Origin: Lachnospiraceae bacterium
GTDB lineage: Bacteria; Bacillota; Clostridia; Lachnospirales; Lachnospiraceae
NCBI GenBank assembly: GCA_045640845.1
Contig: JAZUFV010000079.1
Coordinates: 1-56,353, forward strand
Direction: 5' to 3'
Length of the DNA stretch: 56,353 nucleotides
Shown: positions 2,653-30,630 of the stretch, one piece after another
Layout: every line of letters begins with the position of its first letter
Position numbering within the stretch: the stretch's first letter is position 1
The notes under the pieces: model-generated
Database searches by the model: none
What the model was told of the DNA's origin: nothing
The model's input: only the letters and a program-made list of their open reading frames with translations
Position numbers and translations under genes: made by a program

Positions 2653-3558
2653 TTAGTCAACTTTATAACCGTACTCTCTTGCGAGGTCATCAAGCTGTTT
2701 CTTGATCTCGTCAGAAACATAATCCTGTTTCTTAGGCATTCTTGAATGCATTCCGGTAGGGCCTCCGCCGTACTTCATTGCATAGATCCAGCCTGCATTG
2801 AAAGGAGTCTGCTTGCACAGGTTTCTGATGCGGAGAACTTTAAGCTGAGCTTCAAGGCACTTCTTGTAATCACCCTGCAGACCGTATTCAACGATGTCGA
2901 TCATTTCCTTAGGGAACGGAACTGCCATGAATGATACGCAGCCGACAGCACCATAAAGCATCATATCTCCGTCAAGACCATCGCTTCCGCCAAGGAAGTC
3001 AAACTCGTCAGGATTGATGCGGAGTACACACTGCATGAAATTAAGAACGTCAACAGATGCATCCTTGAAACCTCTGAGGTTAGGATGTTCCTCATGGAGC
3101 TTCTGAAGTGTGTCAGGAGCAAAAAGCTGAGGCATCTGTGAGCAGTTGTAGATGTAAACAGGTTTTTTGCAGTAGTCGATAAGCTCTGCGCAGTAATCAT
3201 ACAGAGCTTCCTGTGTATGCCTGAAGAAAGGAGGAGCTGTGATGCAGTAGCAGTCGCACAGACCTGTCTCTTCATAAGCATCGATAAGAGCTTTGTTCTG
3301 AAGAACTGTGTTCTCAAAAGAGCAGCACATAAGCTTTGCATTTCCCTGAGTGATCTTGTAGATGTGTCTCAGGATCTCAAGCTTTTCTTCTGTTGAAGTT
3401 GCCTGGCATTCAGCGCCGAAGCCGTTTACAAAGAATGCTTTGATTCCCTTGCTCATAAGCCAGGTTATAAGTTCTTCCAGCATTTCGTAATTGATTGAGC
3501 CGTCCTCATTGAAAGGAGTTAAGATCTCATCAACTACACCGGTAATAAAATGTGACAT
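2653..3558 (-). CDS. DapA/NanA-family class I aldolase-like protein (divergent)
   Basis: The track ORF is 2653..3597. I prefer the internal ATG at 3558 (MSHFITGV...) because GGAGG lies 8 nt upstream. Family landmarks are the IYN(C)S Tyr motif and FKDAS (candidate Schiff-base Lys). The usual G(S/T)(S/T)GE motif reads GFGAE. Confidence 0.8.
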   Translation of the reverse strand: MSHFITGVVDEILTPFNEDGSINYEMLEELITWLMSKGIKAFFVNGFGAECQATSTEEKLEILRHIYKITQGNAKLMCCSFENTVLQNKALIDAYEETGLCDCYCITAPPFFRHTQEALYDYCAELIDYCKKPVYIYNCSQMPQLFAPDTLQKLHEEHPNLRGFKDASVDVLNFMQCVLRINPDEFDFLGGSDGLDGDMMLYGAVGCVSFMAVPFPKEMIDIVEYGLQGDYKKCLEAQLKVLRIRNLCKQTPFNAGWIYAMKYGGGPTGMHSRMPKKQDYVSDEIKKQLDDLAREYGYKVD

Positions 3559-3590
3559 AGTAAAACCTCCAAATGTTTCTGATTTATTTT

Positions 3591-4493
3591 TTACCAACCC
3601 TTTGTTTCGTGTGCCATAGGATGATCCAGAACTTCAGGGCATGTGCAGAGGATTATTTCCGGTACATATTTCGGGAAGATGGTAACCGGATACTCCAGTG
3701 TAGGTTCGCTGAAGAGAAGGATTCTGCAGACGGTCTGTTTCCAGCCGGCAGGTGTGGTTGCAACCATATATACGCAGCGTTTTGCGGTGATCATGATGCC
3801 GAAACCGATTGTGATTCCTTTAGGCGGAACGCGGTCAAGGCATGTTCCGAAAGAGCGCTGAGCCATGGCAACCATGGAATCATCGCTTATGTCAACGATG
3901 TGAGTCTTGCCGTGAGCATACTCATCAACGGTCAGATGCATCCAATAGCTTCTAGGGGCTTCATCGAAAGCAACAAGGCCTGTTGCGCCGATTCCTGCCC
4001 AAACGGTATCAACTCCGCCGAGCTTTTCGCAGAGCTGATCCGGATAATCCATATCATTAATGCGAGGCCAGATTCGCTGTTCAACCGGAACGGTCAGTTC
4101 AGGATCGATCCTGTCGTACAGGCAGGCTTCCATTGTTCCTTCAAGACTTTCATATGTATCCCCAACAGGGTAAGGTCGGCATTGCCAATCAAGGAATTCA
4201 TCCATATGGAATACCCACAGATTTTTCAGACTTATACGTTCATTGTTTACACGTTCTACCAATGTATCATATTCCTGTGTAGGACCTGCCGGTAAAACCC
4301 AGACAGTCTTTTCGCCACGGGCATTATGTTCTTTAACTTCGTCGGCCATCATGTTGCCGATCGTAGTGAATATTTCGTTTTTATCAGCGCCCAGCTTGAT
4401 CTGAGCCTTAAGGTCTGTTCTTTTTAAAAGTTCTTCTGTCGGAACGGAGCACCACTCATATATTTCCTGAGTTGTAAGACGGTTTGTTAACAT
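3591..4493 (-). CDS. Glucosamine-6-phosphate deaminase/6-phosphogluconolactonase (NagB/SugarP-isomerase) family protein, divergent
   Basis: The track ORF is 3591..4514. The ATG at 4493 (MLTNRLTT...) has GGGGGA 6 nt upstream. Motifs LPAGPTQ (compare LPTGGTP), FHMDEF (compare FNMDEY) and GIGATGLVAFDEA (compare GVGNDGHIAFNEP). Confidence 0.75.
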   Translation of the reverse strand: MLTNRLTTQEIYEWCSVPTEELLKRTDLKAQIKLGADKNEIFTTIGNMMADEVKEHNARGEKTVWVLPAGPTQEYDTLVERVNNERISLKNLWVFHMDEFLDWQCRPYPVGDTYESLEGTMEACLYDRIDPELTVPVEQRIWPRINDMDYPDQLCEKLGGVDTVWAGIGATGLVAFDEAPRSYWMHLTVDEYAHGKTHIVDISDDSMVAMAQRSFGTCLDRVPPKGITIGFGIMITAKRCVYMVATTPAGWKQTVCRILLFSEPTLEYPVTIFPKYVPEIILCTCPEVLDHPMAHETKGW

Positions 4494-4515
4494 GGTATTT
4501 CCCCCTTTTAACAAG

Positions 4516-4544
4516 CTGCGGTCCTACAGAAGGTAGGACCGCAG
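4516..4544 (-). other. Intra-operon stem-loop just downstream of the binding-protein gene
   Basis: Perfect 12-bp arms, ctgcggtcctac / gtaggaccgcag, with a 5-nt loop. No U-tract follows on the minus strand, so this is more likely a 3' stabiliser or partial terminator than a full terminator. Confidence 0.5.
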
Positions 4545-4566
4545 TCAGTCAAATCGTATAGATTAA

Positions 4567-5664
4567 TTAGTTCATTACATCAGCGGTAATGTCTTTGCAC
4601 TTATCAGTAATTTCTGTCTTGTGCTCGTTAAGGTATGTCTGATCAAGATGCTTTGAGTTGATCTCTGTTGATGGAAGGAAGTAATCCGGATATTCAACGT
4701 CATCTCTTACAGGACGGAGGTCAAGTTCAGAAACGAAGATCTGCTGAACTTCTTTGCTGAGCATGAAGTCGATGAACTTCTTAGCAAGTTCAGGATGTGC
4801 GCAGTTCTTGATAAGTCCGCAAGGTGTGCATGAAAGGCATGTGCCTTCCTTTGGATATACAACAGTAACGTCAGCGCCGTCTCTCTTAGCAACAACGCAA
4901 GGCTCTTCGTAGCTGAGTGCTACAACCTTCTCGCCGTCAACTACTGACTTCCAAGCTGCTGATGAGCCTGAAGCGAAGCCGCCGAGCTGTTTGAACAGAG
5001 CTGTTACATAATCCCATGCTTCTGTGTTATCAACATTAAGGCCGCCCTTATCTGTATGGATAACTTCTACATGGAACAGAGCTGAACCTGACTCAACAGG
5101 GTCAGGCATAGCGATCTTGCCTTCAAGTTCAGGCTGAAGGAGATCTTCGTATCCTTCGATCTTGATTCCGAGTTCATCACGAAGAGTGTTGTTTACAAGG
5201 AAAAGAGCGCAGTCTACGCAGTAGTTTGATACGAAACCTGTTGTGTTGCGGAATTCTTCATTGAGGTTAGCATCTTCCGGGCTGAGATAGTCTTCGAAAA
5301 GATGACGATACTCTGTGTATGAAGACTCGCCGCCGCCGTACATAACGTCGCAATATGGGTTGTCACCCTCTGCGTCGATACGGGCAAGGAGTTCACCTGT
5401 ACCACCGGTGATGATTTCGCACTTGCAGCCATATTTCTCTTCGAACATAGGCACGATGCGGTTGATTTCTGCATCAGGCTGTGTGGTGTAGAGAACCAGA
5501 GTGTCTTCTACAGCTGCGTCTGTAGCTGCGTCTGTAGCTGCCTGAGTTCCTCCGCCTGCAGCTGCTGTTGTGTTTTCAGCAGGAGCTGAACCGCCGCATG
5601 CAGCAAGGCCGAGAACCATGATCAGTGCCAGAACAACAGCCAGCATTTTCTTCATGTTTTTCAT
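4567..5664 (-). CDS. ABC transporter substrate-binding lipoprotein (family-1 / Fe3+-polyamine-thiamine type)
   Basis: Signal peptide plus lipobox (LVLGLAACGG), followed by a Thr/Ala-rich linker. First gene of the operon. RBS AAAGGGA lies 7 nt upstream. Confidence 0.85.
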   Translation of the reverse strand: MKNMKKMLAVVLALIMVLGLAACGGSAPAENTTAAAGGGTQAATDAATDAAVEDTLVLYTTQPDAEINRIVPMFEEKYGCKCEIITGGTGELLARIDAEGDNPYCDVMYGGGESSYTEYRHLFEDYLSPEDANLNEEFRNTTGFVSNYCVDCALFLVNNTLRDELGIKIEGYEDLLQPELEGKIAMPDPVESGSALFHVEVIHTDKGGLNVDNTEAWDYVTALFKQLGGFASGSSAAWKSVVDGEKVVALSYEEPCVVAKRDGADVTVVYPKEGTCLSCTPCGLIKNCAHPELAKKFIDFMLSKEVQQIFVSELDLRPVRDDVEYPDYFLPSTEINSKHLDQTYLNEHKTEITDKCKDITADVMN

Positions 5665-5768
5665 GATTTAATCCCTTTCTTTAAAGTGAATTTTTAATCC
5701 AAGTGTGCTAAAAAAGTACGCCAGACATATATATAAGTTGGCAACAATTTTATACCACTTTCGAGCAT

Positions 5769-5797
5769 AAGTTATCACAAGCCGGGTATTATGTCAA
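5769..5797 (-). promoter_or_regulatory. Candidate sigma-70-type promoter for the ABC operon
   Basis: On the minus strand: TTGACA (5797..5792), a 17-nt spacer, then TAACTT (5774..5769), about 105 nt upstream of the start at 5664. The -10 is weak. An alternative is TGgTATAAA slightly downstream. Confidence 0.3.
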
Positions 5798-5845
5798 TGC
5801 ACGAATAACCAAAGATTTATGTGCAGTTTATACATAATGACAGTT

Positions 5846-5902
5846 ATAAAAATAAAGGGGCAGATATTGTGTGTCAGAGGAGTCGGGCAGCACAATATCT
5901 GC
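5846..5902 (-). terminator. Rho-independent terminator (minus strand)
   Basis: 12-bp arms gcagatattgtg (5860-5871) / cacaatatctgc (5891-5902). On the minus strand they are followed by CCCCTTTATTTTTAT. It separates the tandem-repeat region from the ABC operon promoter. Confidence 0.6.
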
Positions 5903-5934
5903 ATTTCTAATATGGAATTCTTCGGCATAGGAAA

Positions 5935-19857: not shown

Positions 19858-22800
19858 TTAATTCTTACGTCTGCGAAGCAGATAGGTGATGAAGCCTGTG
19901 CTGAGCAGCAGAAGCACCAGGTATATTGGTAAACCGCTGTCATCACCTGTTCCCACATCCTCCGTTTCAGGTTCAGCCTCACCTGACGGCTCGTATTCAC
20001 CGGATGTTCCGGGTTCGCCGGATGTTCCGGATTCGCCAGTTGTCTCTTCCCCGCCGGAGGTTTCATCTTCAGAAGTCTCCTCTTCAGAAGTCTCCTCCGC
20101 AGGAACAGGTTCTGCGTCAAACAGGGCGCAGAACGTGGCAGTCTTTCCGTCCCCGGAAATTGTAACGCTGCACGGCTGTCCGTTAAGCTCTGCTGCCATC
20201 TTCTCATCAAAAACGAATCCGTCATCAGCATGTATCACCATCTGCGCACAGTAGACACCGTTCTCTTTGGCCTCGGTGACATCCTTGCCGTCAAATGTCC
20301 AGCTTACCGGAGGCTCGGATTCTTTTATTCCCTGCTCGTCCGATCTGGCTTTTTCAGAAAGCATCCAGTCAGGAGCTTCAGGAGCATCAAGGAATGCAGT
20401 CAGCTTGTTGATCACCTTTTCATATTCTGCAGTCAGGGTTACATCAGCCTCAGGCATGAGGAAACCAGCCTCTTCGCCCTCAGGAGAAATCACGCCATTG
20501 CTTTCGCTCCATCCGGAGAACCTGTATCCGTCCTTTTCATCGGCGATCACCTGTACAGAGGTGCCGACCGGGATGTTTGTTCCCGAAGGAATGTCCTTTC
20601 CGCTGTCCGCATAAACAGCCTTTCCGTTTATGACAGTAAGCATAAAGGTTTTTGCTTCCGTTTCTGAGAATGTATGGAATACGGTAATGCTTCCGTCATC
20701 GTTCTTACGGATATCATCGGCCGTCTTTTCCTCGCCGTTTACCGTGATCTTCACGTCATCGGCAAAGGAGAAGCCCTCGCCGGCTGCATCTATTGTGAAC
20801 TCGCCGCGGTAGATCCTTGAATAATCAGCTTTCCCCGAAGCATCAAAAGGATTTCCCGCATCAGTTACATCAGTATATTTAATGCAGCTTCCCGGTGTTC
20901 CTTCCACCTCAACATTCTCCGGTGTTCCTTTGAGGATCTCAACATCACCAGGAAGGTCTTGCGCTGCAGACGGGTTTTCCAGAATGAAGTCAGCCACATC
21001 CACCGTGAAGTTTGCCACAAACTTAAGGTTATTGGCCGGCATATGGAATGATGCGTAATTATCATTCAGTCCACCCGAAATGAAGGTTACTTCATTGTCT
21101 GCCGTAAAGCCGGTGTATGAAGTATTTTCTTCAGGGTCATTTGCCCTTATTCCGACCACGGCTGTGTCGTCGTGCCTGTAGCTTCCGCTGCCAATGCCGT
21201 TTACAACAGTAAGTGTATATTCAGTGAGATCAGGCATTTCAATTGTATAGTCAAACCTTACGGCTTCACTTGCCTTTTCACCCTTTATGGCGGCTGCCCA
21301 CAGGCTGTACTCTTTGGTTTCGCCTGTTGTGCCCTTAAGCTCTATAGGAGTTTCATCAGAATATTCGCTGCCGTCTGATATGATTTCAGCAGCAGACGGC
21401 TCAGTGGTTCCGTCATTAATTATGTAATATATCTTTGCGCCTTCTGTCACGCAGTTAAGACTTGGAATGGCCGTATTGTCATATTTTCCCGGAAGGTCTC
21501 CCGTAACATAAGGAGCCGCGGTTTCATCTTCAGGCACGGTGCTTATTTTAACGTTTATATTTTTGCTCACACCATCCGCATAAAGCAGATATTCATCTGA
21601 ATAAAAGCCGAGTATATCATCCTCTGTCAGATATGCAGTATCAATCTGCCCTTCAACGGTGAATTCCTGAGGCACGGTTTTTTCATTCGGATCATAACCT
21701 GCCAGACCGTCCCAGTTCCAGCTGATATCCACAGGATAACTATGGCCGTCATCCACAAATATCCATGTGCTCTGACGAACCATTGCCTTTATTTCAGGTA
21801 CCGTATGGCCGGATTCGATTCCGATCACATCAGGAACATCATTTACATCAGTAATATATGCAGGCCCCGTCCTTAAGGTGCATTCGGCAAGCGCACTGCC
21901 GTCATCCATAACGGTAACGCTGCATTCTTCGCCGTTCAGAGTAATCTTTGAATCCTCCGCGAAATAGTATCCGTCCTCAGGATTAAGAACGAATGAGAAT
22001 TCATAAGGGTATCCGAAAATCGCAGGGTTATCAAGCCACATCTCTTCATGAGGCGTTTCAACCGATGTTTCCTTTACGCCTTCGCCGTTTACTGCGGCTG
22101 ATGTAGGCATCAGCTTTGCTCCTGCGAATGTTGAAGTAAACTCAGCACTGATATCGGTTATCTTCTTAAGGTTTCCAAGGACGGCCTTCACAGTGATATC
22201 GGCATCAGGCATCTCGATAAATGCCGTATGTGCATCATCCTCGTAAATAGTAAGGTCATCTTCGTCTATGCCGCTTACTTCCCACTTTACAAAGTACTTT
22301 CCGTCAGGGATCACAGGGGTGAGCCTGATGAAGTCTTTAAGGAATACGTTGTAGGTTCCGTCATGCTGATCAGTTATCTCGCCGCCGTCAGGATAATCAG
22401 CCACGGCATTTTCTACGGTAAGTATGTGCTGGACTGTTTCGGTTACCGGCGCAAGCACCACATCTGAGTCAGGCATTGTAAATGTAAGGGATATAACATC
22501 ACCGTTAGGAGCCTTTAATACTTCAGGGTTTGTTTCATCAGGGTCTTCGCCGCTTACTATCTTTATATCCACGAGCCTTGTTCCGCGCGTCAGATTATCA
22601 GGAAGGATATTCACCTCATCGCGGTAGTTGAAAACAGTATCTCCTGAGTTTGTCTTGATGGCATCGCCGGTCCAGGATACTTCATATTCCGTGTCCTCGC
22701 TGTGCGCGGTAAGATAAGCATCTCCCTTAGGCATTGTAAACAGATAATCGCCGGTCGTGCTGTAATATTCCGGCAGCGTCGAAGCATCTTCCGAAAGCCC

Positions 22801-25800
22801 TCTTGTTACATTGCCGTAGGCATCCATGGTCTCGGCAAGCGGATAGTAATAACCGTCCCAGTAAGTATGCGAGAGGCCGCGTACCTTGGCATCCTTGATA
22901 GTAATGGTCTCGCCTTCCGAAAGCTGATATTCATGAACTCCCCGGGCGGTATTTCTTACCGTAAGGGTGTACTTGGCCTTTGTATATACAGGAACAAGCG
23001 TGATGTTGTCCTTTATCTTTTCAAGAACTATCGTTTCGCCCTTGAATCCGTCGGCCTTGACATAGTCTTTCTCATATTTTTCAGTAGAAGGATTGTAAGA
23101 AGTTTCCACCGCAATGTACTGGTCGAATTTCTTTCCTGTATCGGTGTAATAAACCTCCCAATGGTCAAACACGCCGTCATCCGAAATTTCGGAAGGATAT
23201 GAAGGCGCCTTTATCCAGGCTCTTCCCGCATCCTTCGACCTCTTTTCGTAAATGTGCTTTACAGGATAGAAGTTTGAAGCTTTTTTAAATGCGATGTCGG
23301 CATACTCCGGATCGATGTAGATCTGCTTCCATGCAGGGGTCTGCTCAGATGGAGCAGTCCCGTTAGGACTTGCCCATGAGCCCGTAAATGTGAGAGTGAC
23401 AAGGTCTGTCTTGTCTCCGAATACTGCATGGATCTCCACTCCGCCTTCAGGCATGGTGAAGGTCAGCTTGTATCCGTCCTCGGTTTTTTCACTTATATTG
23501 CTTCCGTTTATTGTCCATCCGCGGAATTCTTTTCCAGCCACAAGGTCACCTTCTTTTATGGTGATGGAAACCTTGTCGCCCGGCTCCGCATCAATGGCCT
23601 TTGCTCCCGGACCGGAGGAGGAAGAACCCTTGGTAAGATTATCAAGGATCACAACAGCAGTTTTATCCTCATCATTTATCAGTATTGAGGAAGAAGAGCT
23701 CTTTTCATGCTGGTAAAGCACATCGGCATAAACCTTGCCTTCGGTCTGCTTGCCGCTGCATATGATATAGAGCGGCATTGAACTGTAGTACTGATCCCAG
23801 TCGGTGAAAAGTTCCTGATAAACGGTATAGTATCGCCCGGTTTTTTCATTTTCCACAGGGTTGCCGTCTATACCGTAATACGGAATTTCAAGCTGCTTAA
23901 GATATGTCCCTTCAGGAGGAGTTATTTCAAATTCATTGCGGGCGAAAACCGAAAGTGCATCAAGGCTGGCCTTCTTTCCGTCAGCAGTAACTTTGATGGT
24001 GCCGCCGGATATCTCTTCGTATTTTTCATTAACAAATACCGGGGTGAGCTTGATTGTTTTTTCCAGAACAGCAAGGCTTCTGTTGTTCTTATCCGGAACA
24101 AGCCTGATGACATCGTCATAGGCGGCATTCATGAAAGAGCGCTCAAAGTCCTGCGAGACAGTCTGGGTTGCTGTTCCCTGGTTAAAGAATGTGTATTCGG
24201 TTTTGATTCCCTGCCTGCATCCTGTATCTTCCTTGCATACAATTTCAAACAGGAGGTCTGTCTGGTTCCAGCTGCCGTCAAGATTGGCAGTTATATAGAA
24301 CCGGCCTTCATCTATCCACGCGTTGCCCACGTAGTAGTAGCCGTCCAGAACAGAAAGGCCGTCTTTATCCACGGTGGCAATAACGGTTTCCTCGTAAGGC
24401 GAAGTGGTATCCTTCCTTTTTACCCTTACTTCGATGTTATCCAGAGACTCACCGTTCCTGGATGAAACGGTCAGCTGGTACTGCCCTTGCATGGTCTGAT
24501 AGAGATAGTCTCCTGCTCTCATGAACGCAAGCGTGTACTCCGGATAATGCGGCTCAAACAGGTCTGCCCCGTATGTGAGTCCGGTTGCCAGATGCTGGTA
24601 ATCATCTCTCATTCCGACTAAATACAGGCAGGTTACAAACCGCGCCAGACTGTAGGAATTTCTTTCAATTACATTGAGATCATAATCAGACAGGATATCG
24701 CTTATTTTCCGGTTCTTTTCAAGCTCTTCAACAACTCCGCGGATAACGTGGTCAAGTATCCTGGTTGCGGTATATCCGGCGTCAGTACCGAAATAGATTT
24801 TAAAGATATTGGAAATGAGGCTTGATATGGTATAGAAATCCAGCTGCTTTCCGGCAGCTCCTGCCAGGGCGTTTACGAAGCGTTCTGAATCATCTTTGCC
24901 CAGTCCCATGTAAGCCCCGACCAGTATTGTAAGCGAATCCTCAAGTTCATTTGAATATATGGACCTGGCCAGGTTTTCTTCCGGGACGTCATCGTAGCCA
25001 TCGAGGAATTTTTCCATCATCTTAAGACTGTCAACCAGGTAATCATTCATGAGGCTGTAGTCAAAGTCGGCAAGAGTATCGCCGAACGCAGTGTCTGAGG
25101 CATCGTCAAAATCAGGGCTTGAGAAAAAGGACAGGATAATTCCCAGAAGGCTGCTCTCTTTGACAGTAAATTCATGAAGAGCCTTCTTATTTTTCCATTT
25201 TTGGATCATACTGGAATCCACCTGACCCAGCTGAGCATAAAATGCGCTTTCCGTAATGCCGTAGGTCGGATCAATCTCTGTGCCGGCGTGCTTGAATCCT
25301 CCCAGTTTTGACGGAGCCACATAAGGCACCGGATCGATAGGATTCACTATACAGAACAGGTTTGATGTATCTGATGGCTGATATTCGGAATTGTTAGTAT
25401 ATCCCTGAGGAACTTCAAATCCGTAGACATAAATATCCTGAAGGGTAGTTCCGGCCTTATCAAGGCAGGCTTTCAGGTCAGATCTGCCGTCCTCTCCGAG
25501 GACTGCGCAGTTGAGGTATGCGCCTGTGAGATTTGCAGTTGCCGAAGCACGGCTGTATCCGGCAACAAGAATTTTTACGGGATGCTCGGTTGAAAAATCG
25601 TCTCCGTGAGCTTCCATGTAATCGACTATGCTCTGGATGGCAGCATCCCGGGCATAGCTGAAGCCCAAATGTTCACCCCGTGTGCCCACTCTTACATTGC
25701 CTGTCCACTCAGACGCATAGTTACCGCCTCTCAGCGCAACCATCATGACCGGCTGGGTGGTGCCGTCAGTGAGCTCAATCTCTTTTCTTCCGATGCAGAC

Positions 25801-26205
25801 ACCCATCGTGTCCGTTTCCGGCTTTTTCTTAAAGTCCTCGTTAGCTTCTATATCAATGCAGCCGACCTTTTTCATGAGGTCTTCTGTATTTTTGTAGCCG
25901 TATGAATAACCGACATTCTTCGATTCAAACGCAGACATCGCAAGGCAGAGGGCGAATGTGGCGAGAGAATGATGATAGGTGGTCGACTCGTTGGCAAAGA
26001 AGTCATCCCTGTATATGAAAGTGGTCGGACGGTCTATATCCTGCGGGAAATAGAATGTCCCGCTTATTTTATCGGTCGGAAAGACCGTAAACGGAGCGGG
26101 CGTCCTTGAGGCAGCGTATGCCTCGGATGAAGGAAACCTTACCGAAGTAAAGAGAATTATTCCGGCAAGAGCTATGATCCCTAATGTTTTAAGAAATTTT
26201 TTCAT
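19858..26205 (-). CDS. Giant (2115 aa) cell-surface protein: signal peptide, class-3-lipase-like domain, many Listeria-Bacteroides-type repeat domains, acidic linker, C-terminal TM anchor
   Basis: Signal peptide MKKFLKTLGIIALAGIILF...AYAAS. Then VKILVAGYSRASA (GxSxG-like) plus NPIDPVPYV, and recurring F-x-GW/HW/KW motifs (FRGWTING, FDHWEVYY, FVKWEVSG, YRFSGWSESNG). The C-terminus has an E/T/S/G-rich linker and LPIYLVLLLLSTGFITYLLRRRKN. Confidence 0.9.
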   Translation of the reverse strand: MKKFLKTLGIIALAGIILFTSVRFPSSEAYAASRTPAPFTVFPTDKISGTFYFPQDIDRPTTFIYRDDFFANESTTYHHSLATFALCLAMSAFESKNVGYSYGYKNTEDLMKKVGCIDIEANEDFKKKPETDTMGVCIGRKEIELTDGTTQPVMMVALRGGNYASEWTGNVRVGTRGEHLGFSYARDAAIQSIVDYMEAHGDDFSTEHPVKILVAGYSRASATANLTGAYLNCAVLGEDGRSDLKACLDKAGTTLQDIYVYGFEVPQGYTNNSEYQPSDTSNLFCIVNPIDPVPYVAPSKLGGFKHAGTEIDPTYGITESAFYAQLGQVDSSMIQKWKNKKALHEFTVKESSLLGIILSFFSSPDFDDASDTAFGDTLADFDYSLMNDYLVDSLKMMEKFLDGYDDVPEENLARSIYSNELEDSLTILVGAYMGLGKDDSERFVNALAGAAGKQLDFYTISSLISNIFKIYFGTDAGYTATRILDHVIRGVVEELEKNRKISDILSDYDLNVIERNSYSLARFVTCLYLVGMRDDYQHLATGLTYGADLFEPHYPEYTLAFMRAGDYLYQTMQGQYQLTVSSRNGESLDNIEVRVKRKDTTSPYEETVIATVDKDGLSVLDGYYYVGNAWIDEGRFYITANLDGSWNQTDLLFEIVCKEDTGCRQGIKTEYTFFNQGTATQTVSQDFERSFMNAAYDDVIRLVPDKNNRSLAVLEKTIKLTPVFVNEKYEEISGGTIKVTADGKKASLDALSVFARNEFEITPPEGTYLKQLEIPYYGIDGNPVENEKTGRYYTVYQELFTDWDQYYSSMPLYIICSGKQTEGKVYADVLYQHEKSSSSSILINDEDKTAVVILDNLTKGSSSSGPGAKAIDAEPGDKVSITIKEGDLVAGKEFRGWTINGSNISEKTEDGYKLTFTMPEGGVEIHAVFGDKTDLVTLTFTGSWASPNGTAPSEQTPAWKQIYIDPEYADIAFKKASNFYPVKHIYEKRSKDAGRAWIKAPSYPSEISDDGVFDHWEVYYTDTGKKFDQYIAVETSYNPSTEKYEKDYVKADGFKGETIVLEKIKDNITLVPVYTKAKYTLTVRNTARGVHEYQLSEGETITIKDAKVRGLSHTYWDGYYYPLAETMDAYGNVTRGLSEDASTLPEYYSTTGDYLFTMPKGDAYLTAHSEDTEYEVSWTGDAIKTNSGDTVFNYRDEVNILPDNLTRGTRLVDIKIVSGEDPDETNPEVLKAPNGDVISLTFTMPDSDVVLAPVTETVQHILTVENAVADYPDGGEITDQHDGTYNVFLKDFIRLTPVIPDGKYFVKWEVSGIDEDDLTIYEDDAHTAFIEMPDADITVKAVLGNLKKITDISAEFTSTFAGAKLMPTSAAVNGEGVKETSVETPHEEMWLDNPAIFGYPYEFSFVLNPEDGYYFAEDSKITLNGEECSVTVMDDGSALAECTLRTGPAYITDVNDVPDVIGIESGHTVPEIKAMVRQSTWIFVDDGHSYPVDISWNWDGLAGYDPNEKTVPQEFTVEGQIDTAYLTEDDILGFYSDEYLLYADGVSKNINVKISTVPEDETAAPYVTGDLPGKYDNTAIPSLNCVTEGAKIYYIINDGTTEPSAAEIISDGSEYSDETPIELKGTTGETKEYSLWAAAIKGEKASEAVRFDYTIEMPDLTEYTLTVVNGIGSGSYRHDDTAVVGIRANDPEENTSYTGFTADNEVTFISGGLNDNYASFHMPANNLKFVANFTVDVADFILENPSAAQDLPGDVEILKGTPENVEVEGTPGSCIKYTDVTDAGNPFDASGKADYSRIYRGEFTIDAAGEGFSFADDVKITVNGEEKTADDIRKNDDGSITVFHTFSETEAKTFMLTVINGKAVYADSGKDIPSGTNIPVGTSVQVIADEKDGYRFSGWSESNGVISPEGEEAGFLMPEADVTLTAEYEKVINKLTAFLDAPEAPDWMLSEKARSDEQGIKESEPPVSWTFDGKDVTEAKENGVYCAQMVIHADDGFVFDEKMAAELNGQPCSVTISGDGKTATFCALFDAEPVPAEETSEEETSEDETSGGEETTGESGTSGEPGTSGEYEPSGEAEPETEDVGTGDDSGLPIYLVLLLLSTGFITYLLRRRKN

Positions 26206-26616
26206 CTTTTATAAACCCTTTCATTGAACAACAGGTGCGGCATTTTTCGTACACCTATAAAACTTCATCAAAAAATAATCAATGCATATTGATATCCAAC
26301 TTATTATATTACCACAGTATATGGGGATGAAGAAAGATTTTCCAGAATTTGTTTGAGCGGCTTCGCATTCGTTAACCCGGAAGAAAGAAATCCCTACATC
26401 AATCTGCAGGGTTCCTTAAAGATAATTTATAGTAAACTTGGGAAATAAGAGCCAACTTGTTTTTCTAATTGCTGCTTTCCGAAAGAACTTGAAAAATCAA
26501 GGCTTTTTGTTCTTCTAAGGGACTGAACAGTGTTTTGATTAATATCTGTTTTTTCTTTTAAGTACAAAATCAAAAATATATAATAAAAGAAAAAATAATA
26601 ATGGCGGTGACAAAAT

Positions 26617-27681
26617 ATGGAATTATTTTCAGTAATGACTGAAAAAATGAATATGCTATTTATGGATATAATTGCTTCCCTAGGTCAATTGCCATTGGAA
26701 CAGCGAGAATTTATATTCGGCTATGAGGGTGAAGAAGATATGACCTGGGTCCTTGCAGTGGCTGAATATATCACCTTTGAGTATATCAAGTATTCCTTTG
26801 ATTACACTGACCCAGAATATCCATTACGTTATTTTCTTAATAATGCGGATGATAGTGAACGTATGGTTCAGTCACGCACAATGCAGTATATATTAAAATA
26901 TAAGAAGCGTGAACTTACTGCAAACGGAAACTCAGTTCCCGAGGGACATAAATTTGCAGATACAGACATGGATACCATAGGCAAGAAACTCAGAGGGCAC
27001 CGGCTGACAGAAATGAATTATTATGAGCATCAGAATGTCCATGACCTTGAAATAATAAAGTCTATAGTTGAACGGAGAATAGTCAGTTCAAAAAAAGTAT
27101 CAAATGAACATTTTCGAGAGATGTTTGAACAGTATGATTCAGTTGTAGAAATGCTGGTAGAACGCTCTAAGGTCAGTGATGAAGATATGATATTTGCGTC
27201 TTTGGCATTATTTACATTGGAGTGGCATTATCCAATTGAGACTTTCTACTGTCTGTCATGTCTAATGGAAAAAGAAGGCATTGATACTATCGACAGAGAA
27301 ACACTTATCCTTATTTGCGGACTGGTCAAAATAGAATCAAGATTTGGTGGTTGGTACGCAACAGACAGCCGTATGGTTAAGGAGCGGCTACTGATTTTAC
27401 CGTATTTATTTGGCAAGGACACAAATCCGCTTGGACGCGAAACAATGAAGGATCTGGTAAAAGAAATTCTTGTTTTAGGAATTCAATATAAAGAACTAAT
27501 GAGAATCGACGATGATAATACTTATAAGGAATGGTTTAGAAAAGAGTCTTCCATGGAAGACAGAGCTTCATTTTTAAGGAGCTATGATATCTTCGCAATA
27601 TGGCAGAAGAAAGAATGGACACGAAAAAGAATACAAAACATGAGGTATTTGTTTGATCTGACTTTGGCTCAAAAATTATAA
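26617..27681 (+). CDS. Hypothetical protein (354 aa), first gene of the AT-rich islet
   Basis: Long ORF in an AT-rich block with a weak GGTGA RBS. No motif I can recognise, no signal peptide and no TM segment. Confidence 0.6.
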   Translation: MELFSVMTEKMNMLFMDIIASLGQLPLEQREFIFGYEGEEDMTWVLAVAEYITFEYIKYSFDYTDPEYPLRYFLNNADDSERMVQSRTMQYILKYKKRELTANGNSVPEGHKFADTDMDTIGKKLRGHRLTEMNYYEHQNVHDLEIIKSIVERRIVSSKKVSNEHFREMFEQYDSVVEMLVERSKVSDEDMIFASLALFTLEWHYPIETFYCLSCLMEKEGIDTIDRETLILICGLVKIESRFGGWYATDSRMVKERLLILPYLFGKDTNPLGRETMKDLVKEILVLGIQYKELMRIDDDNTYKEWFRKESSMEDRASFLRSYDIFAIWQKKEWTRKRIQNMRYLFDLTLAQKL

Positions 27682-27794
27682 AATCCCGAAAATCGTTCTT
27701 AATAGCCTTGGCATTAATAATGCTAATTTTATTGCAGAAAGATTAAGCGCTTATTTCTTTCAAATAAAAACATATTTGAAAGGAGAATTAGTAA

Positions 27795-28457
27795 ATGGCC
27801 AAGGTAAACAGTTTAAGAGGCGGCTGTATTGATGTGTTCCATGCATCCATCCTAAAAACGGCAACATACGAGGGGAAATATGAATTTCCAGTAATCCGTG
27901 AAGAGCATACGGTTCCAAGCCGCCTAATCCCTTTTTCCAGGGCAATGCAGGAGAAAAAAGATTATCGGCAATGGGTCTGCTTTTATGAAGATGATTTTCA
28001 ATTTGAAAGAATCTGGAATAATCCGACAAAATATGTTGCACAGTTGTCCAAGTTCGATGGAGTAATTTCACCAGATTTTAGTGTTTATTACGACATGCCG
28101 CTATCAATGCAAATATGGAACATATTCAGAAGCAGGGCTATAGGGGCATGGTTGCAGTCCCAAGAAATAAAAGTAATACCAAATATCAGGTTTGGAGATG
28201 AAAGAACATTTGAATGTTGCTGTGAAGGAATAGCACAACATAGCATTATTTCGATAGGTTCGCTTGGGTGCATAAGGGCAAAAACTTATAGAGAAATCTT
28301 TGTAAAAGGGATAGAATATGTCGCAAAAAGGCTTGAACCAGAAATAATAGTACTGTACGGACCTGAACCAAGGAATATCGCAGAACTGAAGAATAGTGGT
28401 ATTAATTTGATAACTGTTAAGCCATTATTTTTCCACCGTAAGGAGGTGAAGAAATAA
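27795..28457 (+). CDS. DUF4417-like protein (220 aa)
   Basis: RBS AAAGGAGAATTAGTAA-ATG. From memory, the pattern ...IPFSRA...WVCFYEDDFQFERIWNNP.KY...LSKFDGVISPDFSVYYDMPLSMQIWNIFRSRAIGAWLQ..IKVIPNIRF resembles Pfam DUF4417. This needs HMM confirmation. Confidence 0.6.
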   Translation: MAKVNSLRGGCIDVFHASILKTATYEGKYEFPVIREEHTVPSRLIPFSRAMQEKKDYRQWVCFYEDDFQFERIWNNPTKYVAQLSKFDGVISPDFSVYYDMPLSMQIWNIFRSRAIGAWLQSQEIKVIPNIRFGDERTFECCCEGIAQHSIISIGSLGCIRAKTYREIFVKGIEYVAKRLEPEIIVLYGPEPRNIAELKNSGINLITVKPLFFHRKEVKK

Positions 28458-28927
28458 TGGGCGGAGGATTTCATGGTGGTTTCGGCAGAACAAAAGGGAG
28501 CCTTGACGGAGCCGCTCCGGGCACAGTAAAACTAGTTGGTTATAGACCTGGGGATAATTTTGGAAAATTTGCCCTTCGGGCAAAACCGTTAGCAGGATAT
28601 ACAGATGTGATTATTCATGGCAATCCTGATACAGATAAAGTTTCAGTATTTCATAATGGAAAATGGCAAGACATAGACCAACGCCGTCTTGCAACTTATG
28701 TCAGACATGATATTGGATATAAATCCGGGCCGATAAGATTAATATCCTGCAGTGCTGGGGAAAAGGAGTTTGCTCAAAATTTTGCGAATAAAATGGGAGT
28801 TAAAGTGATTGCTCCTTCGGACACAGTATGGGCTCATCCAAGCGGAAAGCTGACAATTGGACCCAAATCGTATATTGATAACGGACATTGGAACGAATTT
28901 AATCCAAGGAAAGGAACTAAAAAATGA
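28457..28927 (+). CDS. Hypothetical basic protein (156 aa): Gly-rich N-terminus, His...Cys arrangement; candidate toxin/effector
   Basis: Its ATG overlaps the upstream stop (TAATG). MGGGFHGGFGRTKGS..., then DVIIHGNPD ... IRLISCSAGEKEFAQNFANKMGVKVIAPSDTVW. K/R/H-rich. Confidence 0.55.
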   Translation: MGGGFHGGFGRTKGSLDGAAPGTVKLVGYRPGDNFGKFALRAKPLAGYTDVIIHGNPDTDKVSVFHNGKWQDIDQRRLATYVRHDIGYKSGPIRLISCSAGEKEFAQNFANKMGVKVIAPSDTVWAHPSGKLTIGPKSYIDNGHWNEFNPRKGTKK

Positions 28928-29289
28928 TTTTAAAACGACAAGGATATTATAAAGAAATGCCACACGGTGATGCAAATGATCCATCAATTATGGACGTGCT
29001 TAATAAAAATAACGCTGATAAAAATGCCATTTGCAGATATCTTCAGAGCGGTTATGTATTAGCTGCCTGTGGAAGTGTTGTGAAGGATGTTGTCTGTCCA
29101 GATGAAGGAGTCATTGGTGCTCCGGACGAAATTACAGATGGAGTCTGGATTTGGCCAGCTGATCTTGCATACTATGTTGAAAAGTATAACATAAAGTTAG
29201 ACGAGGCCTTTATTAGACACATGTCTGAAAATTCATGGAGAATTCCTGCAGATTTAGAAATCGATGAAGATGATATTGAGGTTATTTAA
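28924..29289 (+). CDS. Hypothetical acidic protein (121 aa); candidate cognate immunity/partner
   Basis: Its start overlaps the upstream stop (ATGA). D/E-rich (ADLEIDEDDIEVI), with the motif TDGVWIWPADLAYYVEKYNIKLDEAFIRHM. Confidence 0.55.
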   Translation: MILKRQGYYKEMPHGDANDPSIMDVLNKNNADKNAICRYLQSGYVLAACGSVVKDVVCPDEGVIGAPDEITDGVWIWPADLAYYVEKYNIKLDEAFIRHMSENSWRIPADLEIDEDDIEVI

Positions 29290-29420
29290 TATCGATATTA
29301 TTTGGCATTATTTCCTGATATGGATGGTTAGCAAGCTTTACTAAACCCAAGAGGCTATCTGAATCAAACTCTTTTTAAATTATAGTTTTTTCGGGTTTTT
29401 CAGGACCATCATGGCCTTCG

Positions 29421-29546
29421 AATCCGGTTGTTGGGAACAGGTAAATCTGAAAGTGTAAATCAAATCCGGTTGTCGGGTACTATTACTACCCGACAACCGG
29501 ATTTGGATGACATAATAGCAGGGAATCGTACCCGACAATCGAAATT
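29421..29546. repeat. Nested inverted-repeat cluster (four copies of AATCCGGTTGTCGGGTA), including a perfect 18-bp-arm palindrome
   Basis: Copy 1 is at 29421-29436 (aatccggttgttggga). Copy 2 (29462-29479) and its perfect complement (29487-29504) are separated by a 7-nt loop. Copy 4, inverted, is at 29529-29546 (tacccgacaatcgaaatt). Confidence 0.85.
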
Positions 29547-29562
29547 AGTATGCAAAAAGCAG

Positions 29563-30630
29563 TCAGTTTTTTTTATGCTTTATTAAACCTTTTCGGATCA
29601 CACAGCCCAGATAAACCAGCCCGGCATATCCTATGAGAGGGTATACGGTTCCGAGCAGTTTGCTGAAAGAAAAAAGGCTTATGACATAACCGAAAACAGC
29701 CACGCCGATTGCCGTCAGGGTATTCTTGTGCGTTTTTGCCGTAAGGTTTTTGCAGACAGACCACATCATTACCGAACATGATGAAAAGATTCCGAGCACC
29801 AGCATGACGGAAAAGACAGCTCCGAAAATACCGGAGATGCGCTGAGCAAGATAAAGTACCGGGATATCCAGCCCCGCTATGGAGTTTCCGTTCAGCATTA
29901 TGGATGTGCTCATGATGACGATAGAAAGAAGCACTATGATTCCCCCGCAAGCGGCGCCCCACTTCAGTTCCTTGCGCGAATCCGCCGAAGCACCCAGCTG
30001 GGTAAAATATGTGCTCCCCGGGAAAAAGTTAAGTCCCAGATACAGCAGGCCGCTGAGCCACCACAAAGGGGCGGCCCTGAAAGGCTCAAGCGCTTCTGCA
30101 TAAACGGGAACAGCCTCCCAGCTGCCCCAGCTTTGTATCAGACTTATTATGCCTACTGCCAGAGAAAAAAGGATAATGACAGGACCTAATTTGGAAATGA
30201 TGCCGACCATTTTTTCAAAGCCGATCAGATAAACAGCCAGAACGGCTGCCGCAAGAACTGCGGATCCGATGGGCTTGGGTATACTATAGTACTCATTCAG
30301 TGTGGCACCGCCGCCTGAAAAAAGCACAGGGATAAGCAAAAGAAGAGTTACCGTGATCAGCCATGAGTAGCCGGTTCCCAGCACCTTTCCGCAAAAGAAC
30401 CTGAAATGGTCAAAGCATGCGTCGTTCTTATTTTCAAAACCGGCCCGCATAAGCAGGTAGCCTAACAGAATAAAGCCGGCCAGATTTATTCCCACCACGG
30501 CATAGCTCATCCAGCCATAGCTTGAGAAAAACTGCAGCACTTCCTGTCCGGTGGCAAAACCCGAACCTATTACCCAGGCAATATATGCCCCGGCTATTTT
30601 TATGACCTTCAGAGGATTTGCTTTTGGCAT
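29563..30630 (-). CDS. YkvI-family membrane protein (putative transporter)
   Basis: N-terminal IAGAYIAWVIGSGFATGQEVLQFFSSYG is characteristic of this family. About 11 hydrophobic segments. Confidence 0.8.
   Translation of the reverse strand: MPKANPLKVIKIAGAYIAWVIGSGFATGQEVLQFFSSYGWMSYAVVGINLAGFILLGYLLMRAGFENKNDACFDHFRFFCGKVLGTGYSWLITVTLLLLIPVLFSGGGATLNEYYSIPKPIGSAVLAAAVLAVYLIGFEKMVGIISKLGPVIILFSLAVGIISLIQSWGSWEAVPVYAEALEPFRAAPLWWLSGLLYLGLNFFPGSTYFTQLGASADSRKELKWGAACGGIIVLLSIVIMSTSIMLNGNSIAGLDIPVLYLAQRISGIFGAVFSVMLVLGIFSSCSVMMWSVCKNLTAKTHKNTLTAIGVAVFGYVISLFSFSKLLGTVYPLIGYAGLVYLGCVIRKGLIKHKKN

Follow-up and report, generated by a model that had tools for sequence, protein, structure and literature searches.

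Polymorphic MuF toxins are encoded by temperate phages and have been proposed to be delivered together with the phage DNA (Zhang et al. 2012, PMC3482391; Jamet et al. 2017, PMC5576092). The MuF loci place variable ADP-ribosyltransferases, deamidases and BECR nucleases beside the terminase of Firmicute phages, often followed by immunity genes. The left ends of actinobacteriophage genomes hold cassettes annotated as 'nuclease / VIP2-like toxin / immunity protein' (Luchador gp1-gp3); these are known only from database annotations, and the phrase 'VIP2-like toxin' occurred in no paper among the top-ranked literature matches. In the Peptidase C80 domains of MARTX and TcdA/TcdB the catalytic His precedes the Cys by 45-49 residues. 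DpdA works with a ParB-like partner, DpdB. Among Rhs, CdiA and T7SS toxins the protease domain 'Tox-Caspase' has been described, and Imm36 is the immunity family listed for it (Zhang et al. 2012, PMC3482391).

We compared with these systems a four-gene islet (positions 26206-29562) of a contig from a Lachnospiraceae bacterium (GCA_045640845.1, JAZUFV010000079.1); the whole stretch analysed, 56,353 nucleotides, is called the window. On balance, we read the islet as a polymorphic toxin cassette whose constant part is a DUF4417 protein together with a Gly-rich tag of about 14 residues. No description of this constant module was found in the literature. The features of the islet are as follows.

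26206 to 26616, no strand: AT-rich upstream intergenic region, left edge of the low-GC islet (31.4% G+C)
26617 to 27681, + strand: 354-aa member of an uncharacterised family, optionally present upstream of DUF4417 (family HMM, gene neighbourhoods)
27795 to 28457, + strand: 220-aa DUF4417 protein, encoded by the gene that is constant in the cassette (PF14386, phrog_8680)
28457 to 28498, + strand: leader tag MGGGFHGGFGRTKG, first 14 residues of the 156-aa protein (consensus over relatives)
28499 to 28927, + strand: predicted clan-CD (C80/caspase-like) cysteine protease toxin domain (Foldseek, conserved His/Cys)
28616 to 28618, + strand: codon of candidate catalytic His54 in IIHG, after beta-strand 49-56
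28748 to 28750, + strand: codon of candidate catalytic Cys98 in SCSAG, after beta-strand 93-98
28924 to 29289, + strand: 121-aa acidic protein, putative cognate immunity protein of the protease (start overlaps the toxin gene at ATGA; homologues)
29405 to 29555, no strand: nested hairpin with four 17-mer copies between the convergent immunity and ykvI-like genes (repeat search, folding)

The first-pass annotation had described a sharp drop in base composition in the stretch separating a surface-protein gene from a ykvI-like gene, and the computed values bear this out. The islet has 37.0% G+C and the remaining window 46.9%; each of the 463 other equally sized windows lies higher (minimum 41.5%, mean 47.0%, s.d. 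2.6%), and the 500-nt profile runs at 0.32-0.40 across 26250-29750 versus 0.45-0.53 in the flanks. GC3 is 0.27-0.36 in the four islet genes but 0.50 and 0.54 for the genes on either side. As also described, the four ORFs (354, 220, 156 and 121 aa) are co-directional, all on the + strand, and the last three are coupled through TAATG (28455-28459) and ATGA (28924-28927). Apart from short antisense ORFs these four genes are the only islet ORFs of at least 50 aa, so that no candidate integrase or transposase gene was seen, in agreement with the earlier statement. No tRNA genes or Rfam matches were present in the window, no direct repeats flank the islet, and the upstream intergenic region showed no excess of promoter-like matches. 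At the other end, AATCCGGTTGTCGGGTA is present in four copies with at most 3 mismatches (0.09 expected), and the hairpin has a minimum free energy of -61.3 kcal/mol (z=-7.5); hairpin and 17-mer copies were absent from 265 of 265 related loci, and the structure possibly serves as a bidirectional terminator or marks the islet's right edge. The low-GC composition supports the earlier reading of the islet as an acquired cassette, and horizontal acquisition belongs to the explanation that, taken as a whole, we favour with modest confidence.

The 156-aa protein (full ORF 28457-28927, + strand) is basic (pI 9.83) with the Gly-rich start noted earlier, its N-terminus reading MGGGFHGGFGRTKGS. In Foldseek searches of the PDB its model (pLDDT 75.7) best matched the MARTX cysteine protease domain (3gcd/3eeb/3fzy), weakly (E=2e-3, probability 1.0, TMq 0.43), and next the TcdA/B CPD, SAVED-CHAT and legumain; these top matches are all of clan CD but weak (E=2e-3 to 0.2, TMq 0.25-0.43). 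All 65 homologues share Cys98, and at least 90% of them His54, so the His-before-Cys order of caspase and C80 type proposed from the sequence holds as a conserved dyad. At E<=1 Pfam gave neither Peptidase_C80 nor any other clan-CD profile, but only a chance match to DUF4982, and there was no PDB sequence match. By its modelled fold and dyad, the protein is a predicted clan-CD (C80/caspase-like) cysteine protease. It resembles the C80 domains of MARTX and TcdA/TcdB, its best structural matches, in the order and spacing of the dyad (about 44 residues). However, it is some 50-100 residues shorter, so that the InsP6-binding flap is probably absent, and it has a predicted dedicated immunity protein, so that it resembles a toxin rather than a self-processing domain.

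In other phyla the same protease domain forms the C-terminal module of giant proteins (1100 to >3400 aa) of Rhs, CdiA/TPS and WXG100-like type, including carriers with RHS repeats and DUF6531 (L027, L028), with TPS, Fil_haemagg_2 and DUF637 (L071) and with WXG100/T7SS-signal similarity (L076). The domain thus occurs on different delivery regions and also as a tagged stand-alone protein, as in polymorphic toxins. A homologue of the 121-aa protein is encoded downstream of it in most giant-toxin loci of other phyla and in about 24 Clostridia cassettes, directly after the domain if this is C-terminal and, in Myxococcales, after the end of the larger ORF. The 121-aa protein is strongly acidic, as first described (pI 4.33), and shares a TDGxWxWPxDLxYY motif with 47 homologues. 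It had no Pfam or PDB match, and so none to Imm36 either. Because the same domain ends giant toxins and a 121-aa homologue stands next to it in most of them, sequence comparison identifies the two proteins as a real toxin-immunity pair, which agrees with the first-pass suggestion of a basic effector with an acidic partner. The cassette shares with the Rhs, CdiA and T7SS loci the protease domain, the immunity family, the toxin-then-immunity order and the H...C dyad, but its domain is a stand-alone protein of 156 aa in which the Gly-rich tag replaces the RHS, TPS or WXG regions. Type II toxin-antitoxin operons likewise combine a small basic toxin with a small acidic neutraliser; here, however, the predicted neutraliser lies downstream, no DNA-binding domain was detected in it (no HTH, RHH or AbrB match), and the toxin family is common to exported polymorphic toxins.

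What the first-pass annotation missed is that the Gly-rich N-terminus is a conserved tag common to many unrelated toxins encoded after DUF4417. The tag has the consensus MG[AGT]G[YF]HGGFGxTxG (97 unique sequences) and lies in a part of the model that is disordered (pLDDT <50 for residues 1-21). The gene after DUF4417 nearly always starts with this peptide: the 900 nt that follow DUF4417 held a tagged ORF in 60 of 77 metagenome and 57 of 78 viral loci, and each of the 187 tag-like starts in 2.69 Mb belonged to a locus with a DUF4417 gene or its remnant and lay near it, figures to be read as those of loci gathered by seeding on DUF4417 or the toxin and not as an unbiased census. In the window the tag ATG overlaps the DUF4417 stop codon (TAATG), and overlap with the preceding stop as TAATG or TGATG was found in 82 of 112 cases. 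We found 15 unrelated toxin bodies behind the tag in 102 tagged ORFs (at least 15 overall), among them an LHH nuclease (PF14411, 1.6e-29), EndoU (PF14436, 5.7e-8) and DUF6883 (6e-14), with varied immunity partners downstream, including SUKH (5.6e-27) and DUF7674. One constant N-terminal part is therefore joined to 15 alternative toxin bodies, again as in polymorphic toxins. The tag is conserved as a peptide while synonymous codons vary freely; this peptide-level conservation across 15 unrelated bodies, together with a related tag in actinophages, points to selection on the tag itself. Of the other features of polymorphic toxins (Zhang et al. 2012), the cassette has a cognate immunity gene downstream, and a secretion or trafficking domain or apparatus (Sec, T5SS, T6SS, T7SS, PVC, TcdB/TcaC, PrsW, MuF) was not found; in the 156-aa protein no recognised domain of this kind was detected with Pfam.

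The 220-aa protein matched PF14386 with E=3.6e-63 (212.8 bits, gathering cutoff 28.9), which confirms its earlier assignment to DUF4417, and phrog_8680 with E=4.8e-62. The DUF4417, toxin and immunity genes are adjacent on one strand in the genomes of about 24 Clostridia species. The nearest named PDB fold to the AlphaFold2 model of DUF4417 (pLDDT 87) was tRNA-guanine transglycosylase (TGT; 7a4x), a weak match (E=0.022, TMq 0.46), and in BFVD the model weakly matched phage queuine tRNA-ribosyltransferases (E=1.5e-3 and 1e-2). We therefore predict a TIM-barrel-like enzyme or adaptor closest to TGT/DpdA. The motifs DD..FE and PDFS and the residues N109, R112 and R114 are kept from Clostridia to actinophages, and this conservation of polar residues across phyla looks enzyme-like. 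A further likeness to DpdA with DpdB is that DUF4417 is often fused to a ParB-CTPase fold; on the other hand, the protein is much smaller, its fold similarity is weak, no TGT family profile in Pfam matched its sequence, and no 7-deazaguanine synthesis genes were seen near DUF4417. There are also hints of fusion: P0157 is DUF4417 fused to a toxin body, and the DUF4417 ORF of phage Fameo continues in frame into the poly-Gly linker.

The 354-aa protein is not the orphan that it was described as: 1.84 billion cluster representatives include 172 relatives of it at E<=1e-3; it matched nothing in Pfam, NCBIfam, PADLOC, PHROG or PDB sequences. Its family HMM found 21 ORFs in the loci collected, 19 of them directly upstream of DUF4417 with a gap of mostly about 110 nt (range 32-119). 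The closest relatives of the window's DUF4417 have this family directly upstream, but the toxin there is usually a different one, and none of 80 genome loci encoding a relative of the 156-aa protein held a 354-aa homologue. In those loci XRE + ImmA/IrrE, Fic, AAA_21 or other genes precede DUF4417. The four genes are thus not the fixed unit that had been supposed, and in phage contigs relatives of the 354-aa protein occupy an early or regulatory region without DUF4417. We read the protein as an optional, possibly regulatory accessory; it fills the slot taken by XRE + ImmA/IrrE, or Fic, in most other cassettes.

The same layout of DUF4417 and a tagged effector occurs beside terminase genes in phages of Firmicutes and Actinobacteria. 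Their related tag, MGGRGASSG, stands on ADP-ribosyltransferase and deamidase effectors encoded after DUF4417 (ADPrib_exo_Tox, 2e-16; Gln_amidase, 1.8e-15), and in MuF-type PHROGs it is the C-terminal parts that the tagged phage effectors match. Mycobacteriophage Luchador and Gordonia phage Remus both encode DUF4417 as gp1, followed by an MGGRG-tagged protein annotated as VIP2-like toxin (gp2), gp3, annotated in Luchador as immunity protein, and an HNH endonuclease gene, after which Remus has the terminase small-subunit gene. These left-end cassettes share with the window DUF4417, a tagged toxin (MGG in the phages) and a small gene, but have the MGGRG tag with a long poly-Gly linker, another toxin, and a place beside HNH and terminase of a complete phage. 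MuF toxins likewise combine variable effector domains, a place beside terminase genes in Firmicute phages and, often, immunity genes. On the other hand, neither the window proteins nor the tagged phage effectors matched MuF (Phage_Mu_F), here DUF4417, a protein of its own, and a tag of 9-14 residues form the constant part, and the window cassette lies outside any phage packaging module, whereas its phage relatives lie inside one. The HGGFG-type tag was found in only 3 of 2.9 million IMG/VR contigs and isolated phage genomes lack the 156-aa protein, so that a phage route for the window cassette rests on analogy.

Under the reading that we favour on balance, the toxin of the window would be a clan-CD (C80/caspase-like) cysteine protease acting in the cytoplasm, and the 121-aa protein would bind and neutralise it in the producer. 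The overlapping stop and start codons would couple synthesis of DUF4417 to that of the toxin. DUF4417 would recognise the disordered tag and perhaps act on it chemically, and tag and DUF4417 together would stand in for the delivery domains (Rhs, CdiA or WXG) to which this protease is attached in other phyla. The module would have originated in phages, where the pair beside the terminase carries effectors of types for which packaging and injection together with DNA are known. This setting suggests that its likeliest role would be to route the toxin out of the producer and into cells that lack the immunity gene.

A cassette acting within the cell would look similar in several respects. DUF4417, derived from a phage, could sense phage infection and free the tagged toxin, and the infected cell would die, a three-part toxin-antitoxin or abortive infection system without export. 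The cassettes lie in conflict islands beside Abi_2, PhdYeFM, Fic/RhuM, AAA_21 and DNA methylase genes, and XRE + ImmA/IrrE, a switch typical of mobile elements, precede 22 of 35 of them. The toxin has no signal peptide, the islet holds no secretion, capsid or tail genes, few such genes are near cellular cassettes, and these are seldom in phage packaging modules. We nevertheless consider this unlikely. As in the first-pass view of the islet as matching no nameable defence system, none of its four proteins matched any PADLOC-DB v2 family at E<=1; the toxin gene precedes the immunity gene, and partners of SUKH type are a hallmark of polymorphic toxins that are exported; the same protease/immunity pair belongs to toxins of the Rhs, CdiA and T7SS types, whose delivery is from cell to cell; and carriage of DUF4417 with a tagged effector beside the terminase of phages does not fit host defence.

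The fold similarity of DUF4417 to tRNA-guanine transglycosylase and phage queuine tRNA-ribosyltransferases, and its annotation as a nuclease in databases, would also suit a stand-alone DNA-acting enzyme (TGT/DpdA-like or a nuclease) next to a toxin-immunity pair that serves as an addiction module, with the tag a trace of shared descent of the junction. This we regard as improbable to a marked degree, given that a neighbouring addiction module explains neither a tag kept as a peptide on 15 unrelated bodies, under free synonymous change and with a related actinophage form, nor the stop/start overlap of DUF4417 and the tagged gene as a rule. Least credible is a silent orphan module, a spare part for recombination into a full-length toxin with DUF4417 a chance neighbour: the toxin has no known delivery domain, Rhs and CDI loci commonly hold orphan toxin-immunity cassettes and recombination with stand-alone toxin cassettes has been described (Zhang et al. 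2012, PMC3482391), but this toxin has its own ATG coupled to DUF4417, a purine-rich stretch that reads as GG-rich codons and is consistent with a ribosome-binding site precedes the tag ATG in many loci, the HGGFG motif was found in no full-length Rhs or CdiA protein with the same protease domain, and the DUF4417/toxin/immunity trio recurs in dozens of species.

The polymorphic toxin cassette with DUF4417 and the tag as its constant part thus remains our preferred reading. In hundreds of gut-bacterial and phage sequences DUF4417 stands just ahead of interchangeable tagged toxins, an arrangement that points to a route of toxin handling or delivery.

The islet at 26206-29562 has a G+C content of 37.0%, compared with 46.9% for the remainder of the window. 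This is lower than in all 463 same-length windows elsewhere (minimum 41.5%, mean 47.0%, sd 2.6%), confirming the sharp drop that the first-pass annotation had judged by eye. A 500-nt profile gave values of 0.32-0.40 in the islet against 0.45-0.53 in the flanks, and third-position G+C was 0.27-0.36 in the four islet genes, whereas the surface-protein and ykvI-like genes on either side reached 0.50 and 0.54. An ORF scan returned the four co-directional ORFs, with the TAATG and ATGA overlaps described before:

26617-27681, + strand: ORF for the 354-aa protein
27795-28457, + strand: ORF for the 220-aa DUF4417 protein
28457-28927, + strand: ORF for the 156-aa predicted toxin
28924-29289, + strand: ORF for the 121-aa predicted immunity protein

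The computed isoelectric points were 9.83 for the 156-aa product and 4.33 for the 121-aa product, as expected from the proposed pairing of a basic protein with an acidic partner. We found no tRNA genes or Rfam families in the window and no direct repeats flanking the islet, and a promoter and terminator scan gave no excess over shuffled sequence. An empty site in related strains was sought by exact look-ups of both flanking proteins, neither of which was recorded. The islet is bordered by a 2115-aa ORF (19858-26205, - strand) with an N-terminal signal-like sequence, a C-terminal acidic repeat and a membrane anchor, which the first-pass annotation took for a giant surface protein. Between the convergent immunity and ykvI-like genes lies a nested hairpin (29405-29555; -61.3 kcal/mol, z=-7.5) formed by the 17-mer AATCCGGTTGTCGGGTA, which occurs there twice in direct and twice in inverted orientation at a spacing of 42 nt; this 17-mer was found in none of 265 related loci.

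The 354-, 156- and 121-aa proteins gave no usable match in Pfam, NCBIfam, PADLOC, PHROG or the PDB sequences, and the lack of a PADLOC defence model agrees with the earlier remark that the genes fit no nameable defence system. Searching a collection of 5.8 billion proteins, we obtained 71 relatives of the 156-aa protein and 47 of the 121-aa protein. Among 65 relatives of the former, Cys98, Asp50, Gly55, Arg94, Leu95, Gly101, Asn111 and Lys112 were invariant and His54 was kept in at least 90%. A scan with one genome per species found 99 relatives, for which 80 loci were fetched. In other taxa (Actinobacteria, Myxococcales, Planctomycetes, Verrucomicrobia, Pseudomonas, Ottowia and others), ORFs of 1100 to more than 3400 codons carry the 156-aa domain at their C-terminus or close to it, and in most of these loci a 121-aa homologue is encoded downstream. 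The giant ORFs annotated include two with RHS repeats and DUF6531 (L027, L028), one with a TPS domain, haemagglutinin repeats and DUF637 (L071) and one with similarity to WXG100/T7SS signals (L076). Because a giant ORF ending in the 156-aa domain and followed by a 121-aa homologue has the layout of a polymorphic toxin and its immunity gene, the 156- and 121-aa proteins are predicted to be a toxin-immunity pair; the toxin-immunity layout first suggested from the islet alone thus recurs in Rhs, TPS and WXG100-like giant-toxin loci.

An AlphaFold2 model of the 156-aa protein, built from 65 sequences, had a pLDDT of 75.7 with residues 1-21 disordered. Its best PDB match was the cysteine protease domain of Vibrio MARTX (3gcd/3eeb/3fzy; E=2e-3, probability 1.0, TMq 0.43), and further matches were to the TcdA/TcdB protease domains, SAVED-CHAT and legumain. 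The scores were weak, yet all of these structures belong to clan CD, consistent with the conserved His-then-Cys dyad. The model is in keeping with the caspase/C80-type fold previously proposed from the His-before-Cys order, and we describe the toxin as clan-CD-like in its predicted fold, with a conserved dyad. Caspase-like domains have already been listed among the toxins that end polymorphic toxins (Zhang et al., 2012; PMC3482391), so that the kind of toxin is already known, the 156-aa family itself being without a profile. The cysteine-peptidase toxin of StbD CdiA (bioRxiv 10.64898/2026.05.07.723447) was rejected as a relative, being a C39 papain-like enzyme. As a separate observation, the clan-CD-like domain is internal in the giant proteins of nine loci from Myxococcales and others (L035-L037, L041, L049, L053, L055, L066 and L068), with 300-500 residues beyond the domain and a 121-aa-type gene still downstream of the ORF; here it may be a releasing peptidase that likewise needs neutralising.

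In about 24 genomes of Clostridia, including Lachnospiraceae, Oscillospiraceae, Saccharofermentans, [Clostridium] aminophilum and Eubacterium xylanophilum, the DUF4417, toxin and immunity genes are adjacent on one strand; about 10 further genomes have a zinc-ribbon protein instead of the 121-aa partner. Just upstream of DUF4417, 22 of 35 cassettes have a gene for an ImmA/IrrE peptidase, in most cases with an XRE regulator gene ahead of it, and 4 of 35 have a Fic protein. In the cassettes whose toxins most resemble the window's (76-78% identity), the upstream place is taken instead by either an AAA_21 gene and a 103-aa gene or a 250-aa gene. Phage-like neighbours are few among these cellular cassettes. 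None of the 80 loci fetched on the 156-aa protein carries a 354-aa homologue; the four genes do not form a single fixed unit.

Nor is the 354-aa protein an orphan, as had been supposed: phmmer against 1.84 billion cluster representatives returned 172 matches at E<=1e-3 and 106 at E<=1e-10, though the family has no relative in Pfam or the PDB. The closest relatives of the window's DUF4417 protein (57-76% identity) have a 354-aa homologue upstream. A family HMM found 21 ORFs in the fetched loci, 19 of them directly upstream of DUF4417 at a distance of mostly about 110 nt (range 32-119), and the toxin in such loci is usually one other than the protease. We treat the 354-aa protein as an optional accessory of the cassette. 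Relatives on phage contigs (about 31% identity), recovered in a collection scan whose alignment was narrower than the diverse 46-sequence family alignment, lie in the early/regulatory region without DUF4417. In L249 and L254, two IMG/VR loci (2938-5924), such relatives always come after phrog_4031, a 627-aa protein with an HTH-repressor-like C-terminus, and restriction-endonuclease-like, sigma-like, exonuclease and Ant genes are nearby. Their position after three large ORFs had raised the idea of a phage head protein, which was rejected since PHROG annotation gives an early/regulatory region.

Downstream of the closest DUF4417 relatives, the next gene encodes not the protease but a 131-133-aa protein starting MGGGYHGGFG, with a DUF7674 protein encoded after it. 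In the full set of loci, the HGGFG motif was confined to the starts of ORFs adjoining DUF4417, bar one chance match inside an opposite-strand ORF of the RHS-type locus L028, and it was not found in the Rhs/CdiA proteins that bear the same protease domain. The 102 HGGFG-tagged ORFs comprise 15 unrelated bodies. Among them are the clan-CD-like protease, two nucleases (LHH, PF14411, 1.6e-29; bacterial EndoU, PF14436, 5.7e-8) and DUF6883 (6e-14), with weaker matches to PBECR1, JAB and HExxH-type domains, and most of the 15 have no Pfam match. The partners encoded downstream vary as well, with SUKH immunity proteins among them (5.6e-27). The consensus of 97 unique tags is MG[AGT]G[YF]HGGFGxTxG. Every glycine position uses all four Gly codons and the choice between both His, Phe and Thr codons is likewise free, which argues for selection on the peptide and led us to reject an RNA or DNA element in the leader. 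Of 112 tag start codons, 82 share bases with the stop codon before them, and in 60 of 77 assessable metagenome loci, all gathered by seeding on cassette components, a tagged ORF lies at most 900 nt downstream of DUF4417. Sequence comparison thus shows, as our main result, a constant tag on interchangeable putative toxins, whose genes are tightly linked and coupled to DUF4417 in the loci collected.

Several individual loci deserve mention. Two metagenome islands (L262, 3105-8388; L265, 1965-9101) hold two DUF4417 cassettes each along with Fic/RhuM, CdiI_3, PhdYeFM, AAA_21 and AAA_14/DUF4143 genes, and look like conflict islands. At 7118-11698 in L086, genes for Mob_Pre, a DnaG-type zinc-ribbon primase, DUF5906 and KilA-N come after the cassette, a setting that points to a small mobilisable or satellite-like element as its carrier. 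The cultured isolate [Clostridium] aminophilum DSM 10710 (L002/L167/L266) carries XRE, ImmA, DUF4417, protease and immunity genes on a 14418-bp contig classed as viral over its whole length in IMG/VR, and its cassette is a possible experimental model. Besides its cassette, Eubacterium xylanophilum (L024, 2178-4298) has another DUF4417 gene, a divergent one (299 aa, PF14386 E=4.8e-4), with three small ORFs after it, none bearing the HGGFG motif; this may be a further cassette variant.

The 220-aa protein itself matched DUF4417 (PF14386, E=3.6e-63) and phrog_8680; phrog_940, whose label is 'nuclease', was matched in its C-terminal half. Its model (pLDDT 87) has a TIM-barrel-like alpha/beta fold. 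The nearest named PDB structure was a tRNA-guanine transglycosylase (E=0.022, TMq 0.46), and in BFVD the first matches after its own family were phage queuine tRNA-ribosyltransferases (E=1.5e-3 and 1e-2), all of them weak. Polar residues kept from Clostridia to actinophages (a DD..FE motif, PDFS, N109, R112 and R114) suggest that DUF4417 is an enzyme. A text search found few mentions of the domain in the literature; according to a 2025 preprint, phages frequently fuse it to the ParB-CTPase fold, and no function is assigned to it there.

A counterpart of the cassette occurs in phages. IMG/VR holds at least 570 DUF4417 relatives, and in many of the 80 loci fetched the gene spans 340-360 codons; alignment of two such long forms (L184, L257) showed a ParB-like N-terminus in both. 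Of 78 assessable loci, 56 have MGGRGASSG at the start of the gene after DUF4417, and tagged genes sometimes stand in tandem, two or three per DUF4417 gene (L189, 2800-3737; L245, 6681-8596). Their bodies include an ADP-ribosyltransferase (PF03496, 2e-16) and a glutamine deamidase (PF15644, 1.8e-15) and resemble C-terminal parts of MuF-type proteins. DUF4417 appears in 499 records of isolated phages (Mycobacterium 385, Streptococcus 57, Gordonia 33), and the 156-aa protein is absent from isolated phage genomes. In Mycobacterium phage Luchador, gp1 is a DUF4417 protein, gp2 (annotated 'VIP2-like toxin') starts MGGRGSAGG ahead of a poly-Gly linker, gp3 bears the annotation 'immunity protein' and gp4 is an HNH endonuclease. 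Gordonia phage Remus has a Luchador-like layout with a terminase small-subunit gene after the HNH gene, and on this gene order the phage counterpart adjoins packaging genes. Of 2.9 million viral contigs, by contrast, only 3 showed the HGGFG-type tag; the cassette of one lies at a prophage edge, beyond a lysin gene and a 461-aa ORF that we take, from its N-terminal sequence, to be a recombinase. In Mycobacterium phage Fameo (L260, 667-2357) the DUF4417 ORF runs in frame into a poly-Gly linker without an MGGRG start, and the toxin body lies in the next ORF, in a different frame; a fusion is one possible explanation, a frameshift inside the GGN repeats another. Together with P0157, a protein fusing DUF4417 to a toxin body, the Fameo ORF gives a weak hint of physical association.

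We propose that the tag and DUF4417 would stand in for the delivery region of classical polymorphic toxins: DUF4417 would recognise or modify the tag, and the toxin would reach cells without the immunity protein, perhaps together with phage particles or transferred DNA. The chief alternative is a role inside the cell, in defence or as a toxin-antitoxin system, which is favoured by the island context of cassettes and the XRE/ImmA switches upstream; the immunity types, the order of toxin and immunity genes and the fact that phages themselves have the layout argue against it. A more specific version of delivery, in which DUF4417 is a TGT/DpdA-like transglycosylase that links the effector covalently to DNA through the tag's N-terminal glycine as nucleophile, for co-delivery into a recipient, strikes us as a long shot. 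The Met-Gly start of the tag is invariant, and Met removal would free the glycine; the flexible Gly-rich tether would then join effector to DNA, and toxins or host-takeover enzymes would ride the DNA via a phage portal or another DNA-transfer route. Such protein-on-DNA delivery would jointly explain the ParB fusions, terminase proximity, Met-Gly start, actinophage poly-Gly linkers and stop/start coupling.

Earlier literature already covers polymorphic toxin systems, toxin domains of the caspase-like type and toxins linked to phages (MuF). Literature text searches found no published account of DUF4417 and a short Gly-rich tag as a constant module, and searches on DUF7674, on either tag, on 'VIP2-like toxin' or on ParB combined with polymorphic toxin and terminase likewise gave no account of the arrangement. 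Actinophage records annotate all three genes, and an analysis of the layout was not met in the searches leading to those records. On how small toxins of gut Firmicutes exit the producer, a 2026 study of Bacillota Tde nucleases concluded that the secretion route is unknown. The protease/immunity pair adds a putative clan-CD toxin family and a dedicated immunity family, both without a profile in current libraries. More broadly, the cassettes provide an easily searched genomic rule, namely DUF4417, then a gene with one of two Gly-rich tags and a variable body, then an immunity gene; it holds across Clostridia of rumen and gut, phages of streptococci and several hundred DUF4417-bearing records of mycobacteriophages and Gordonia phages. 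If the tag and DUF4417 are a delivery or activation module, they would represent a new trafficking class for polymorphic toxin systems, give a function to a widespread phage domain and offer a simple marker for mining new toxin and immunity families, and the short portable tag might be used to load cargo.
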